Assembly: GCA_964354285.1 (NCBI GenBank)
Contig: CAYGYR010000001.1
Location: 518,424-582,423, forward strand
Source of the DNA: an uncultured Methanosarcinales archaeon
GTDB taxonomy: Archaea; Nanobdellota; Nanobdellia; Woesearchaeales; ARS49
Length of the DNA: 64,000 nt
Direction: 5' to 3'
The position numbers and the translations under genes were made by a program. This document shows positions 34,603 to 57,516 of this stretch, piece after piece. Within the stretch, counting starts at the first letter, position 1. The number at the start of each line of letters is the position of its first letter. The notes under the pieces are model-generated. The model saw only the letters and a program-made list of their open reading frames with translations. It was not told where the DNA came from and made no database searches.

Positions 34603-34688
34603 GCCCCCGTAGCTTAACGGTGGAGCGACTGACTGTTATCCATTGGAGAGAAATCAGTAGGTCACCAGTTCGAATCTGGTCGGGGGCG
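34603..34688 (+). tRNA. tRNA-Asn (GTT) with an anticodon-loop intron of about 14 nt
   Basis: Acceptor GCCCCCG/CGGGGGC; T-arm ACCAG-TTCGAAT-CTGGT; anticodon stem ACTGA/TCAGT enclosing CTGTTAT plus the intron. Confidence 0.75.
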
Positions 34689-40367: not shown

Positions 40368-40460
40368 GCCCCTGTAGTATAGCTTGGATAGTACGCGAGG
40401 TTGCGGACAGCGTGTAAATGCAAAAACCTTGAAACTGGGGTTCAAATCCCCGCAGGGGCG
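40368..40460 (+). tRNA. tRNA-Arg (GCG) with an anticodon-loop intron of about 19 nt
   Basis: Acceptor GCCCCTG/CAGGGGC; anticodon stem CGAGG/CCTTG around TTGCGG plus intron; T-loop TTCAAAT. Confidence 0.7.
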
Positions 40461-49413: not shown

Positions 49414-49486
49414 AGCCCCGTCGTCTAGTGGTTAAGGATAGCGGACTTTGGATCCGTTGACAGCGGTTCGAATCCGCTCGGGGCTA
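49414..49486 (+). tRNA. tRNA-Gln (TTG)
   Basis: Acceptor AGCCCCG/CGGGGCT, anticodon loop CTTTGGA, T-arm AGCGG-TTCGAAT-CCGCT. Confidence 0.8.
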
Positions 49487-53688: not shown

Positions 53689-54918
53689 TTATCTTCTAAA
53701 ACTAGGCCTACGCCTGAATTTAGATTTAAAATCTCTGCGAAAAGGCCTTTGCTGTTTTGGTGCGGGCTTAGCAGCTGCGCCGACAGCATTTTTTGCATAT
53801 TCTGAATGGTATGCATGCTGCATAACCTCAATCTTTTGCCTAATCAGCTTTTCAATATCGCGAAGAAAATCTCTTTCATCTGCTGCGCAAAAAGAATACG
53901 CTGTGCCTTCTGCCCCTGCTCGTGCAGTCCTGCCTATCCTATGGACATAGCTTTCAGGCAGATTAGGAAGCTCAAAATTTATAACATGAGAAATACAGTC
54001 TATATCAATCCCGCGCGCAGCAATGTCTGTAGCAACCAACACTTGTATTTTTCCTGATTTGAAATCAGAAAGCGCCTGTGTTCGCGCATTTTGTGATTTA
54101 TTGCCATGAATTGCATCCACTTGGATGTTATTCTTGTGTAGATATAATGCAACTTTATTTGCACGATGCTTTGTGCGGGTAAACACTAAAACGCGGGTAA
54201 GATGCTCTTGCCTAAGAAGGTCCAATAACAGCTGTTCCTTAGCAGAAGAATCCACAAAAAAAACACATTGTTTTACACTTTCAACAAGGGTTGCTTGTGC
54301 TGCAGCCTCAACATGAACTGGATTTCTAAGAAGTGTTCCGGCAAGATCGCATATCTGAGGAGACATTGTTGCTGAGAAAAAAAGCGACTGGCGCTTTTGC
54401 GGCAATCTGGATATTATTTTTTTGATATCATTGATAAATCCCATATCAAGCATCCTATCAGCTTCATCTAAAACAAAAAATTCAATGTCTTTCAAGCTGA
54501 TTCGGCCTTGATTCATTAAATCAAGCAATCTGCCTGGTGTTGCGATAACAATATCAACACCCTTAGCCAGAGCATTAACCTGTGATCCTTGGCCAACACC
54601 CCCAAAAATGACAGTATGCTTAAATTTAAGAAACTCACCGTATGCAGAAAAACTTTCACCAATCTGTGCTGCAAGCTCCCTAGTTGGCGCAAGGACTAGT
54701 ACACGGATAGTTCGAGGATATTTTTCAGTCATCCTTTGAAGGATAGGCAATACAAATGCAGCAGTTTTGCCTGTTCCTGTTTGAGCTATGCCTATTAAAT
54801 CTCTCCCTTTCAAGAGATCAGGAATAGCTTTTGACTGTATTGGTGTCGGCTCAACATACCCCTGTTTGGCAATTGCCCTTTCAAGAGGCTCTATCAGATT
54901 TAGATTTTTAAATGACAT
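53689..54918 (-). CDS. DEAD-box ATP-dependent RNA helicase (RhlE-like) with a basic C-terminal tail
   Basis: Q-motif, [15 protein letters not shown] and HRIGRTAR motifs. Confidence 0.9.
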
Positions 54919-55010
54919 TTTAGTTTTTTATAAATTAATAAGCATGCTTTATGCTTTTAAAGGTATGGTTTATTAAGGTATGCAATTAAATTATTCAGTA
55001 TTCACATATA

Positions 55011-55034
55011 CAGCCCTGTGGTGTAGCAGCCAAG
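55011..55034 (+). other. Orphan duplicate of the tRNA-Gln(CTG) 5' segment
   Basis: AGCCCTGTGGTGTAGCAGCCAAGC versus the tRNA 5' end AGCCCTGTAGTGTAGTGGCCAA (20 of 22 identical); intron-like TATTCAG lies just upstream. Confidence 0.5.
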
Positions 55035-55073
55035 CAATAAATATTTATACCTTTTCTTCTATCCAATTCACTT

Positions 55074-55979
55074 GTGAGAGTCCAATTTAAATCATCAAAA
55101 CAAAGAGAAGTAATTCTGAATTTTAAACAGAATACTGATTTAACTTGGCAAGAACTTGCGGATTATTTGCATGTCAGAAAATCAGCATTATTAACCTGGT
55201 ATCATGAAAAAACTTTGTTGCCGTATGCAATATACATAATATTAGATAAAAAAGGACTGTTCAAAGAGCACATTCTAGAACTTAAAAATGATTGTTGGGG
55301 CCAAAGCAAAGGAGGAATTGCATCAACAGGAACAACAAAAGAAATATCCTTGCCAAGGCCTTGTACAGATTTAGCTGAATTAATCGGCATTGTATTAGGT
55401 GATGGTAATATCCATGAATACATTCAGACTAAAAAAATTAGGACATATATGCTAAGAATAGCGGGAGATTCGAGAAAAGACAGAAATTATCTTGTGACTT
55501 ATGTTGCTCCGCTCTGCGAATGCTTGTTTTCAATCCAGCCAAAATTTTTATATCAAAAACAGAGCAATGAGCTTTTTGTTATATTACACAGCAAGAAAAT
55601 CATTGAGTTCTTTAAAAAAATGGGCTTAACGCCAGGTAACAAAATCAAGAATCGATTAAATATTCCTGGCTGGGTACTCGAAGATGAGACATATCTTCGA
55701 GCATGTTTGCGTGGTTTAATAGATACAGACGGATCTATTTTCAGAATGTCAAATAGAGATCCGCAATTATTGAGAATTAATTTTAGAAATGTAAATAGCT
55801 CTTTGCTTGAAACTGTTTATAAGTCTTTTATTACGTTAGGATTTAAACCGGCACTTGCAAATAATGTAGTTTACTTATCTAGGAAGCAAGATATAGTAAA
55901 CTTTTTAAAAGGCATAGGTTTTTCTAATAGTAAGCATAGGTTAAGGCTTAAGAAGTTCAAAGGCAGCCCTGTAGTGTAG
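55074..55979 (+). CDS. Free-standing double-motif LAGLIDADG homing endonuclease with an N-terminal HTH-like region
   Basis: LIGIVLGDGNI and LRGLIDTDGSIF motifs; the last 15 nt overlap the tRNA-Gln 5' end. Confidence 0.8.
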   Translation: MRVQFKSSKQREVILNFKQNTDLTWQELADYLHVRKSALLTWYHEKTLLPYAIYIILDKKGLFKEHILELKNDCWGQSKGGIASTGTTKEISLPRPCTDLAELIGIVLGDGNIHEYIQTKKIRTYMLRIAGDSRKDRNYLVTYVAPLCECLFSIQPKFLYQKQSNELFVILHSKKIIEFFKKMGLTPGNKIKNRLNIPGWVLEDETYLRACLRGLIDTDGSIFRMSNRDPQLLRINFRNVNSSLLETVYKSFITLGFKPALANNVVYLSRKQDIVNFLKGIGFSNSKHRLRLKKFKGSPVV

Positions 55980-56072
55980 TGGCCAAATTTTTATTCAGCG
56001 TATGCTGAATAGAAAGGCTAGGCATGATTGGCTCTGGACCAATCGACGGCGGTTCGAATCCGCCCGGGGCTA
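55965..56072 (+). tRNA. tRNA-Gln (CTG) with a non-canonical intron of about 35 nt in the D-loop region
   Basis: Acceptor AGCCCTG/CGGGGCT, anticodon stem ATTGG/CCAAT with loop CTCTGGA, T-arm GGCGG-TTCGAAT-CCGCC; extra segment ATTTTTATTCAGCGTATGCTGAATAGAAAGGCT after GTGTAGTGGCCAA. Confidence 0.6.
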
Positions 56073-56134
56073 TTATTTATTCTGTATCAAAAGATGAGCA
56101 ACTTGGTAGAGATGTCCTGACAGGGATATTCTGA

Positions 56135-56629
56135 TTATCTTATGTCTGAGTGCTCAAGAAATTTAATGATTTTTTTAAATTTGTCTTCTAAAAATCTCAC
56201 ATCTGCTTTCTTTATCCTTTTTTTGTTGTATTTTAGAAAAAATCTTAGAACACCTGGTTCAATCCAGCACAATTTATCTGCTGTTTTTATTATTTTGCCT
56301 TCAACTGTTTTTGGTTTTTTGGAAGAACCATGATTTAATATACAATCTTCCAGCTTAGAATCAACTCTAAATCCGCTCTTTTTCAAAATATTAACACTAT
56401 GAAATGCATGATCTTCAGAAGAGATAGTTCTTCCTATATCATGCAAATTAGCTGCAATCACTAATGTTTTTCTGTCAACCTTTCTTTTTTCAGCTAGAAT
56501 AAGCGCAGTTTCTCTTACTTGTTTCATATGCGCAAGAAAGATCTCCTTGTCCTTAGCAGATTTAACCTTGCCAAATAACTGCTTAGCAAATTGTTCAGAA
56601 CTTTTAATAGTTAAAGTTAATTTTTTCAT
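56135..56629 (-). CDS. HD-domain phosphohydrolase
   Basis: H...HD...H...H...D pattern (ANLHDIGR). Confidence 0.6.
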   Translation of the reverse strand: MKKLTLTIKSSEQFAKQLFGKVKSAKDKEIFLAHMKQVRETALILAEKRKVDRKTLVIAANLHDIGRTISSEDHAFHSVNILKKSGFRVDSKLEDCILNHGSSKKPKTVEGKIIKTADKLCWIEPGVLRFFLKYNKKRIKKADVRFLEDKFKKIIKFLEHSDIR

Positions 56630-56755
56630 AATATTAAATAACTTAACTCAATATTTAAACATTTCCAAAGTTTCTCATCAAATGATACAAAAATCATAGA
56701 TATCTGTGAGGGGCTATCGATTCTTTTCTTCCAGCCCTAAATTCAACTCTTAGAA

Positions 56756-56962
56756 TCATCCCAAAAGCTCCTTATATCCTTCCAGGTTTTTTAGTCCATA
56801 TGCGCTGATTATTTTTTCCCTGCCTTTTGGCTCTTTTAGAAGTCTTTCAATAAATTTCTGTGATTTGGCAAATTGCGCATTAATGAATTCTGTGTGAATC
56901 TTTTTCCATTTATCAGGGTTTTCTTTCATAAATCTTATCCAGCGGTCAATTTCTTCGCTCAT
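56756..56962 (-). CDS. Small helical hypothetical protein, coupled to the upstream nucleotidyltransferase-like gene
   Basis: 68-aa ORF with a 4-nt overlap. Confidence 0.3.
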   Translation of the reverse strand: MSEEIDRWIRFMKENPDKWKKIHTEFINAQFAKSQKFIERLLKEPKGREKIISAYGLKNLEGYKELLG

Positions 56963-57516
56963 GATAATCTTAGCCTTCTTATCATTTTTTTAATATGATT
57001 GATGTTATCTTCACTGATTTGCTCGGCATATATCTTTCTTAAATGCTCTGCATCTTTTAAATCCTTCTCTGATTTCAATAGTTCTTCCTTAAATGCTATA
57101 TTCATGTCTATGCTGCTGAACCAGACATCAAGGCCGGTCAAAGGCAGCTTCGTTCTTGTCCTGATTTGAAACTCATCCAGATCATCTTTTACAAACTTGA
57201 TTTCCATCTCTGGCAAAGGCTGGTTTCTTAGCGTGTAGCGCACTGCTATTTTATCTTTTAAGTAATCGAATATCTCTTCTTCTGAATCAGACTGCATGCA
57301 CGTAAATCCTCCTTTTATTAAGTCCTGGTGCAGCCTCTTGAATCTTTCAAAATCGAGTTTTTCAATAATCATATCAATGTCTTCTGTTGCCCTGCTTCTT
57401 CCAGAGCTTATTGCAACAAATCCTGAAACAATTATGTACTTGCAGTGCTTATCTATTATAGAACAAAACTTAATACAAAAATCATCCAATATATTTTTAT
57501 CATCTATTGCGCGCAT
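56959..57516 (-). CDS. Minimal nucleotidyltransferase-fold protein (putative)
   Basis: GFVAISSGRSRATEDIDMII resembles the GS...D.D motif of pol-beta-type nucleotidyltransferases. Confidence 0.4.
   Translation of the reverse strand: MRAIDDKNILDDFCIKFCSIIDKHCKYIIVSGFVAISSGRSRATEDIDMIIEKLDFERFKRLHQDLIKGGFTCMQSDSEEEIFDYLKDKIAVRYTLRNQPLPEMEIKFVKDDLDEFQIRTRTKLPLTGLDVWFSSIDMNIAFKEELLKSEKDLKDAEHLRKIYAEQISEDNINHIKKMIRRLRLS

Follow-up and report, generated by a model that had tools for sequence, protein, structure and literature searches.

A free-standing LAGLIDADG endonuclease gene fused to an intron-bearing archaeal tRNA-Gln gene: a candidate homing cassette that carries its own tRNA 5' segment

A gene for a LAGLIDADG endonuclease and an interrupted tRNA-Gln(CUG) gene were analysed in a 64,000-nt stretch of DNA from a DPANN archaeon (positions 518,424 to 582,423 of the forward strand of contig CAYGYR010000001.1, assembly GCA_964354285.1), hereafter called the window. 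As listed in Table 1, the endonuclease gene lies between an orphan copy of the tRNA 5' end and the tRNA gene itself. An earlier reading of the locus from its letters alone (the sequence-only reading) had described a double-motif LAGLIDADG protein of 301 aa that ends 15 nt inside tRNA-Gln(CTG), and the calls of the open reading frame (ORF) and of the tRNA confirmed this. The tRNA gene as a whole occupies 55965-56072. The overlap, AGC CCT GTA GTG TAG, serves both as the last four codons and the stop codon of the ORF and as the first 15 nt of the tRNA, with the stop codon TAG at tRNA positions 13-15. The upstream copy was likewise present, but it ends 37 nt before the ORF start codon, not 40, and it matches the genomic tRNA 5' end at 20 of 23 positions; compared with the spliced tRNA, the match is 22 of 25. 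Its alignment score was 39.5, and that of control regions of the same locus was at most 19.5. The region was reproduced base for base by two independent assemblies (1182 and 1174 nt), and the organism occurs in sequencing runs ERR3804373 and ERR3804374.

Table 1. Features of the endonuclease and tRNA-Gln(CUG) locus in the window
Feature	Positions	Strand	Basis
Orphan 5' copy, tRNA-Gln(CUG) positions 1-24, intron-less form (AGCCCTGTGGTGTAGCAGCCAAGCA)	55012..55036	+	repeat match
BRE/TATA-like promoter box (ATAAATATTTATACC)	55037..55051	+	putative; sequence and conservation in locus L001
LAGLIDADG ORF, 301 aa	55074 (GTG)-55979	+	ORF call and Pfam
tRNA-Gln(CUG) 5' exon, positions 1-21	55965..55986	+	ARAGORN after in-silico splicing
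35-nt D-loop intron, position 21/22, relaxed bulge-helix-bulge	55987..56021	+	fold, covariation
tRNA-Gln(CUG) 3' exon: D-stem 3' strand, CUG anticodon arm, T-arm, acceptor 3' strand, discriminator A	56022..56072	+	ARAGORN cloverleaf

The tRNA gene is interrupted in its D-loop. The sequence-only reading had noted an insert of about 35 nt with its own hairpin. Neither ARAGORN nor Rfam called the unspliced gene; however, when the two exons were joined, ARAGORN returned a clean 73-nt tRNA-Gln(ctg) with a normal cloverleaf. The splice sites were set from the cloverleaf alone, that is, from the end of the D-loop (GGYYAA) and the start of the D-stem 3' strand. The minimum free energy fold of the unspliced RNA was a cloverleaf in which the D-arm is lengthened by a 4-5-bp helix, an AAA bulge and a 12-bp hairpin (-49 kcal/mol, z = -4.8). 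Under the bulge-helix-bulge (BHB) rule the insert is exactly 35 nt long and contains no ORF, and the hairpin quoted earlier is part of the 12-bp stem. The helix pairs GGCC with GGCU, the 5' cut falls in a 3-nt bulge (AA/A, the slash marking the cut), and the 3' cut (AG/G) falls in an internal loop beside the D-stem, which makes this a relaxed BHB form. No group I intron or other Rfam family was found by an Rfam search of 54000-57000. The TATTCAG motif (TTATTCAG) upstream of the orphan copy, which had been taken as intron-like, occurs 8 times in the AT-rich window against 4.3 expected and is missing from the closest relative (locus L001, 85% identical), and it is therefore attributed to chance.

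The geometry of the insert recurs in relatives of the locus. In 24 tRNAs of the family, the same arrangement was found: a 4-bp helix (GGYC with GRCN), a bulge AA/N, a variable inner hairpin and a 3' cut 2 nt past the helix. Pairing in register amounted to 187 of 216 positions (87%), as against 95-129 (44-60%) in shifted registers. By pair count 87.6% of the cells were paired, and the covariation was 0.474, compared with 0.22 in shuffles (0 of 500 as high) and 0.11-0.25 in slid registers. At helix position 3, C-G is found in 11 and U-A in 8 sequences; that is, a D-loop base of the exon covaries with a base of the intron. All five inner-helix pairs have changed on both sides among the family tRNAs. 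Between the window and L001, the 3' exon is identical at 51 of 51 positions and the intron differs at four, three of them in the loop and the fourth preserving a G.U pair. The BHB motif that the sequence-only reading had suggested looking for at the intron boundaries was thus found, with covariation behind it, and the insert fits an archaeal non-canonical BHB intron at position 21/22 that would be removed by splicing.

The protein gave an above-cutoff match to Pfam LAGLIDADG_3 (E=1.2e-5) and a weak match to LAGLIDADG_2 on its first half. Motif 1 (LAELIGIVLGDGN, with D110) and motif 2 (LRGLIDTDGS, with D219) were both present, and G109 D110 G111 and D217 T218 D219 G220 were invariant in an alignment of 26 relatives. 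The AlphaFold (AF2) model (pLDDT 90.7) shows a helical N-terminal domain (residues 1-75), a disordered linker and a two-lobed, I-DmoI-like core (98-294), with alpha-beta-beta-alpha-beta-beta-alpha lobes and the saddle shape by which such enzymes bind DNA. The best Foldseek hits were I-DmoI and I-Tsp061I (target TM-score 0.71-0.73), I-AniI and PI-PfuI also being matched, with E about 1e-9. A profile search of solved structures matched I-DmoI, archaeal intein endonuclease domains and I-Tsp061I, and gave weak matches to WhiA-type LAGLIDADG domains. The N-terminal domain had no Pfam match and only weak helix-turn-helix (HTH)-like matches; it is an extra domain that resembles a DNA-binding one. By motifs and predicted fold the protein is a monomeric double-motif LAGLIDADG homing endonuclease, expected to cleave DNA. 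Enzymes of this type make site-specific double-strand cuts with 4-nt 3' overhangs in long targets. In comparison with L001, the ratio of nonsynonymous to synonymous substitutions (dN/dS) was 0.20 at a dS of 0.36.

Upstream of the ORF, the orphan copy and the putative promoter box behave differently. The orphan copy runs on into GCA (positions 22-24) without any intron sequence, and it lacks G18 (it reads AGCAGCC). It differs from its counterpart in L001 at 7 of 25 positions (Jukes-Cantor distance 0.35, about equal to the ORF dS). Since it diverges at about the synonymous rate, the copy is drifting in the lineage of the window, where it is probably a decaying relic. The homology to L001 ends at the 5' end of the copy, and the sequence 5' of it is unrelated. 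The promoter box is identical to that of L001 at 14 of 15 positions, whereas the adjoining spacer and the orphan copy drift. It includes TTTATA at 55045-55050, 24 nt 5' of the GTG, and there is no Shine-Dalgarno sequence. A TATA-like 8-mer centred 24.5-28.5 nt 5' of the start codon was found in 27 of 55 family loci, and this spacing is probably the geometry of a leaderless endonuclease mRNA transcribed from the box. Several variants of the arrangement were seen. In L044 there is no TATA box between orphan piece and ATG, and a GGAG of the piece is placed like a Shine-Dalgarno sequence. L002 and L014 have about 100 extra nt between orphan piece and ORF, and L002 carries a perfect 10-bp inverted repeat (TTAATCACCC...GGGTGATTAA, at 2460-2500 of that locus) directly 5' of the endonuclease ATG, which may be a regulatory hairpin or a small insertion. 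The orphan pieces of the window (55027-55030), L001, L020, L022, L058, L071 and L084 read AGTAGCC or AGCAGCC where the functional gene has AGTGGCC. This G18-to-A change loses a conserved D-loop G and would improve pairing with the intron GGCU; selection, shared ancestry and AT-biased decay are the candidates for its recurrence.

Other A/T-rich sequences at the locus may have promoter roles. Within the 3' end of the ORF, no clear TATA was found at about -30 from the tRNA start, only an AT-rich stretch at -62 to -52. This stretch (AAATATTTAAAAGA, about 55903-55913, 52-62 nt 5' of the tRNA start) encodes the conserved peptide K-Y-L-K-E-I-G-F-S-N, which is also found in relatives; it resembles a TFB recognition element (BRE) with TATA box and could double as a tRNA promoter with a leader of about 30 nt. 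TATA-like stretches (TTTATTAA and TTAAATTA) also lie at 54969-54995, 17-43 nt 5' of the orphan piece. They may be the promoter of the original, now broken tRNA gene, and transcription from them into the endonuclease gene could still occur.

A single-protein scan of the genome collection returned no match. An alignment-based scan found 313 loci among 185,579 species genomes, almost all labelled DPANN, and 80 loci were fetched. A word-indexed protein search found 534 relatives, mostly of about 300 aa and, where named, from Pacearchaeota, Woesearchaeota or Nanoarchaeota; an exhaustive search of representatives at 50% identity gave 95 clusters at E<=1e-30 and 1214 at E<=1e-10. Truncated copies exist in the family. 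Several metagenome-assembled genomes (among L010, L013, L045, L049, L057, L077 and L079) are labelled Methanosarcinales, Thermoplasmatales or Hadarchaeota and carry a cassette of DPANN type. For L010, identical contigs exist in the L002 lineage, and the non-DPANN labels are likely due to mis-binning or mislabelling.

The overlap with a tRNA gene is a property of the family. In the fetched loci the ORF stop codon falls within the tRNA 5' end, and of 59 distinct linked tRNAs (48 Gln-like and 11 Glu-like) 35 share exactly 15 nt with the ORF and 12 share exactly 10 nt. At the protein level, S-[P/L/S]-x-V or -AP/-AL, the translated tRNA 5' end, forms the C-terminus in about 100 of the 120 closest clusters. 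In a neighbour-joining tree, the tRNA-Glu-linked enzymes group together as a single clade. Two contigs of one assembly (JAHJSH01; L038 and L082) hold family members at tRNA-Gln(CUG) and at tRNA-Glu, so that one genome can carry more than one target-specific lineage. A longer sister subfamily (P0210-P0298, about 320-360 aa) has another N-terminal region of about 125 residues and a tRNA-derived end in only 5 of 51 members (about 10%), and it therefore probably has another genomic context. A short subfamily (L042, L061, L075, L078 and L081; about 170-236 aa) is without the N-terminal domain; here the upstream tRNA copy spans no more than about positions 1-13 and is found at a distance of 200-300 nt. 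Together with D-loop inserts at other positions in some of the tRNAs of this subfamily, this suggests a second insertion site.

The orphan copy also recurs. A partial tRNA 5' copy was clear in 22 of 42 full-length loci, with more decayed remnants at the equivalent place in others. The copies mostly begin 53-62 nt 5' of the ORF, and the junction between copy and promoter box is constant throughout the family. Some copies are 100% identical to their own tRNA although the proteins of these lineages are only 40-50% identical. Recognisable copies across such divergence must therefore have been renewed, by new insertions or by conversion.

As to the relation between intron and endonuclease, the Gln/Glu-type tRNAs of the fetched loci carried a D-loop insert in 34 of 69 cases when linked to an endonuclease gene and in 0 of 26 when unlinked (Fisher p = 1.4e-6, uncorrected for phylogeny). 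Intron presence is interspersed in the enzyme tree, so the intron has been gained or lost repeatedly. Near-identical orphan copies occurred only with an intron (5 of 17, compared with 0 of 25, at a threshold picked post hoc); no difference in overall copy score was seen between loci with and without the intron (Mann-Whitney p=0.37). Where a linked tRNA has no intron, it departs from its own orphan copy in the D-stem or by a 1-nt insertion in the D-loop. A general relationship between the mobile element and the tRNA intron is thus statistically supported.

The end of the orphan copy marks a breakpoint. In loci with a D-loop intron, the copy extends 3-4 nt into the D-stem 3' strand of its own tRNA (TCA, GGA, GCA or TCAT) and never into the insert. 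Since the copy holds positions 22-24 of the spliced form, it comes from a gene that had no intron and was broken at about 24/25, a point 3 nt away from the insert site (21/22). The cleavage target of the enzyme would lie at this breakpoint. The outer ends of the unit appear to be native. A tRNA-Gln gene followed by a tRNA-Glu gene is a recurrent pair in the family genomes. In the Glu-linked locus L084 the orphan tRNA-Glu piece begins 3 nt after an intact tRNA-Gln, and an intact tRNA-Glu occupies the equivalent place in L024 (5 nt) and L006 (12 nt). In L006 and L024, which are Gln-linked, the re-formed tRNA-Gln retains its native spacing to tRNA-Glu. Both outer ends are therefore native, as expected for insertion within a resident tRNA gene, and beyond the orphan piece and the tRNA 3' end the flanks of the loci are unrelated. 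The family layout, positions 22-24 in the fragment and the native position in L084 all fit the invasion of a tRNA gene by an endonuclease with duplication of the target, the first of two origins that the sequence-only reading had offered.

We therefore consider that the locus holds a homing-endonuclease cassette of about 1 kb inserted in the D-arm of a host tRNA-Gln(CUG) gene, to which we give a probability of roughly 65%; its cleavage, splicing and mobility are deduced from the layout. The cassette would comprise a BRE/TATA-type promoter, a probably leaderless endonuclease gene, a fused replacement for tRNA positions 1-21 and the 35-nt intron. The enzyme would cut intron-less tRNA-Gln genes in the D-arm near positions 21-25, and the break would be repaired from a cassette-bearing copy, with two homology arms, the tRNA 3' part on one side and, on the other, the orphan piece, whose positions 1-24 run without a gap up to the break. 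The recipient would then carry its old 5' piece as a stump, followed by the endonuclease gene and a re-formed functional tRNA, from which the host splicing endonuclease would remove the small intron to give a normal 73-nt tRNA. The intron would split the presumed recognition sequence and shield the re-formed gene from its own enzyme; it is because the intron lies only 3 nt from the breakpoint that this immunity is proposed, and the intron probably blocks self-cleavage. Relatives without the intron would be protected by a diverged D-arm instead. A more specific and more tentative form, which we hold somewhat less probable than its negation, would describe the whole family as gene-replacement homing elements: the nuclease would cut the D-arms of intron-less tRNA-Gln and tRNA-Glu genes, repair would bring in a resistant 5' segment, and the BHB intron would be the determinant of immunity.

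Several points weigh against the homing cassette. No endonuclease-free ("empty") allele was found, and mobility is thus deduced only. The exact 3' exon had no match in JGI metagenome contigs. At the loci of orthologues of the neighbouring DEAD-box helicase (64-82% identical), neither tRNA-Gln nor endonuclease adjoined, and these loci had no gene order in common with either flank of the window. The search with ribosomal protein S3Ae, which lies beside the L002 relative, returned the identical allele only, and then relatives of at most 61%. The model also predicts tRNAs that have the 21/22 intron without an endonuclease, and none was seen (0 of the 26 unlinked tRNAs); pairing of the recipient's left end with the 5' copy that bears the intron should let the intron spread by itself. 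The proposed cleavage site and the intron immunity draw on the 3-nt proximity and on post hoc correlations uncorrected for phylogeny. Cleavage by RNase P at the tRNA 5' end would strip the stop codon from a co-transcript, so that expression is not straightforward. In addition, the first origin of the duplicated 5' segment is left without account, the tRNA-derived C-terminal peptide is present in only 36-44% of the more distant representatives, and the strong purifying selection and wide conservation would suit a domesticated protein too.

Such domestication is the alternative that survives best, although we regard it as unlikely. The LAGLIDADG protein would serve the host at tRNA-Gln and tRNA-Glu genes, for example as a WhiA-like regulator or as an RNA chaperone or maturase, and the orphan pieces would be by-products of old local duplications. 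The large and mostly full-length family, the low dN/dS, the strictly conserved positional link to two tRNA species, the N-terminal helical domain with its HTH-like matches and the weak WhiA-type matches would all suit a host function. However, both catalytic acidic residues are invariant, and DNA-binding LAGLIDADG derivatives such as WhiA have lost them. The patchy spread over the genomes scanned, the truncated copies and the unrelated flanks also speak against it, and the orphan pieces have been renewed in lineages far past saturation. Since the protein also accompanies intron-less tRNAs, it is no splicing factor for the D-loop intron.

Still less probable is that the cassette, or a larger parent, entered as a circle by recombination and not by homing, either site-specifically or in a Campbell-type event at the tRNA 5' part, the two tRNA copies then being attL and attR. 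Direct repeats of a tRNA segment around an ORF-bearing insert are a hallmark of tRNA-targeted integration (PMC3293823), and the constant junction of orphan piece and promoter box would agree with it. However, the LAGLIDADG gene is the only ORF of the approximately 1-kb unit and the nuclease its sole encoded enzyme, and no integrase or other recombinase was found within or beside it, the neighbours being helicases, an HD-domain protein and a pseudouridine synthase. The family is also absent from viral contigs, in which the search returned distant LAGLIDADG proteins only, so there is no evidence for a viral vehicle. One special case, Campbell-type integration of an intron-bearing circle, was rejected, since a single crossover predicts the intron in the left (orphan) copy and the opposite is seen.

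The second origin offered by the sequence-only reading, a degenerated endonuclease encoded in a formerly larger tRNA intron, was not borne out: the ORF precedes the tRNA 5' end and is not enclosed by splice sites, a D-loop insert is missing from about half of the linked tRNAs, and the fragment ends at 24/25 and not at the intron site 21/22. A related explanation, a giant BHB intron, we hold to be very improbable. The upstream piece would be the 5' exon, followed by an intron of about 985 nt with the endonuclease gene and by the 3' exon, and the 5' copy downstream would then be secondary. ARAGORN does accept the upstream piece as tRNA-Gln when it is joined to the 3' exon, its AGCC can pair with the intron GGCU, and the closest structural relatives of the enzyme are encoded in BHB introns. 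However, as the piece carries exon positions 22-24, it has no exon end at the 21/22 splice site; it has no inner-helix complement after its bulge, it has lost G18, and it drifts neutrally. In L006 the piece would pair with the acceptor 3' strand only via three G.U pairs, and a complete intron-less tRNA lies downstream; the many linked tRNAs without a D-loop insert count against a giant intron as well. A split or permuted tRNA of the Nanoarchaeum type does not apply either, since a complete gene lies downstream and no complementary leader was found at the orphan piece in the window sequence. Chance similarity or an assembly artefact, for which only the short repeat length speaks, is negligible in view of the two identical assemblies, the same layout in dozens of unrelated assemblies and the far lower scores of the control searches.

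The homing cassette can be set beside several known systems. I-DmoI and I-Tsp061I resemble the enzyme of the window in their fold, in having both LAGLIDADG motifs with their acidic residues on a single chain, in their archaeal origin and in their association with a stable-RNA gene and a BHB intron. They are, however, encoded in rRNA introns, whereas the gene here lies outside the intron, upstream of a tRNA gene whose 5' end it overlaps; the protein here also has the additional N-terminal domain of 75 residues, an identity of only about 22%, and a tRNA instead of an rRNA target. Mitochondrial endonuclease genes, such as that at Allomyces atp6, bring a duplicate end of the invaded gene and leave the old part as a pseudogene fragment. 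Replacement segment and stump are thus as here, but these elements concern the 3' ends of protein-coding genes in organelles, not the 5' end of an archaeal chromosomal tRNA gene.

Collaborative homing is an established concept (PMC6083498). In a case of 2009, as outlined in that source, a free-standing endonuclease gene lies beside a target gene with an ORF-less intron, and the intron, which lies in or close to the presumed recognition sequence, would keep the enzyme from cutting its own locus and would be transferred too, as proposed here. At the window locus, too, the endonuclease gene adjoins a target gene bearing an ORF-less intron. The phage system outlined there combines a group I intron with an Endo VII-type nuclease, its target gene codes for protein, and no gene segment is duplicated in it. 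At the present locus the intron is of the protein-spliced BHB type and the enzyme of the LAGLIDADG type; the target is a cellular tRNA gene whose 5' segment is duplicated and overlaps the ORF, and the immunity is deduced from position.

The anatomy of the tRNA-Thr(GGU) locus of Caldiarchaeum subterraneum is nearly equal: a 5' fragment (positions 1-27), a 1.87-kb insert with an 813-bp ORF on the same strand directly upstream of, and abutting, the tRNA, and a new intron (24/25) at the junction (Sugahara et al. 2012, PMC3293823). Delivery of a tRNA intron by a mobile element has already been proposed for it (PMC3293823). That case is one locus in one population, its ORF was called a "recombinase" by a property-based classifier only, and its integration was attributed to site-specific recombination; here, a LAGLIDADG nuclease is identified, the layout extends through a DPANN family, and the targets are tRNA-Gln and tRNA-Glu. 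By analogy, the Caldiarchaeum insertion may be an element of the same kind. Elements of the SSV1/pNOB8 type are also inserted in tRNA genes with a partial copy that preserves tRNA function and a direct repeat, but they use tyrosine-type integrases, measure many kb and usually duplicate the 3' part, whereas the present unit is about 1 kb long, lacks an integrase and has the 5' part in duplicate. Non-canonical BHB introns of archaeal tRNAs in Thermoproteales and DPANN are, like the present one, short, outside 37/38, of relaxed BHB form and missed by standard finders (PMC4033280, PMC5829648); the present case adds a statistical link between one such position and the endonuclease gene next to it. 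DPANN splicing endonucleases have been associated with increased tRNA gene disruption (PMC5829648), and the reviews examined speak of "intron transposition" but offer no mechanism for it and make no mention of homing (PMC4033280). No link of tRNA gene disruption to LAGLIDADG enzymes was found in the literature searched.

Further features were noted around the locus and in the family genomes. The neighbouring genes encode a DEAD-box helicase, a Ski2-like helicase, an HD-domain protein, a zinc-ribbon protein and a pseudouridine synthase. A second tRNA-Gln, with anticodon UUG (49414-49486), has neither insert nor endonuclease, and its D-arm (GTCT AGTGGTTAA GGAT) is unlike that of the CUG gene. 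The genes for tRNA-Asn(GUU) (34603-34688, 86 nt) and tRNA-Arg(GCG) (40368-40460, 93 nt) bear introns and are still called by ARAGORN and Rfam; since both programs tolerate these introns, they are sited in the anticodon region. Together with the Ski2-like helicase they mark the window as archaeal. Very long anticodon-region inserts (about 45-145 nt) occur in tRNA-Glu genes, both linked (L060, L067, L069, L071, L080 and L082) and unlinked (L012, L018, L021, L024, L026, L030, L037, L039 and L041). These inserts share recurring blocks (e.g., ...GTTGAGAT...GGACAGGCA...) and may hold structured RNA; the tRNA-Glu of L067 reaches 209 nt with at least two introns. The small genome of L002 has another selfish element besides: precomputed Pfam annotation (Intein_splicing) places an intein in the flanking DNA gyrase B gene (1-571 of that locus).

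The locus is a new combination, widely distributed, of a free-standing homing endonuclease, a non-canonical tRNA intron and a tRNA-fragment insertion. It explains tRNA-Gln and tRNA-Glu genes that are missed in many DPANN genomes, and the family is a natural set of nucleases with related yet distinct long targets. The layout also points to a way in which a homing endonuclease could enter an essential RNA gene: it supplies a spare segment of that gene and need not rely on its own coding sequence being spliced out. The odd positions of archaeal tRNA introns and the frequent disruption of tRNA genes are a standing question, to which the locus brings a testable link between intron and endonuclease. 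If the homing cassette is true, it would be the first concrete mechanism for the gain and spread of non-canonical introns in archaeal tRNA genes, and it would lend direct support to the old proposal that the disruption of tRNA genes protects them from mobile elements.

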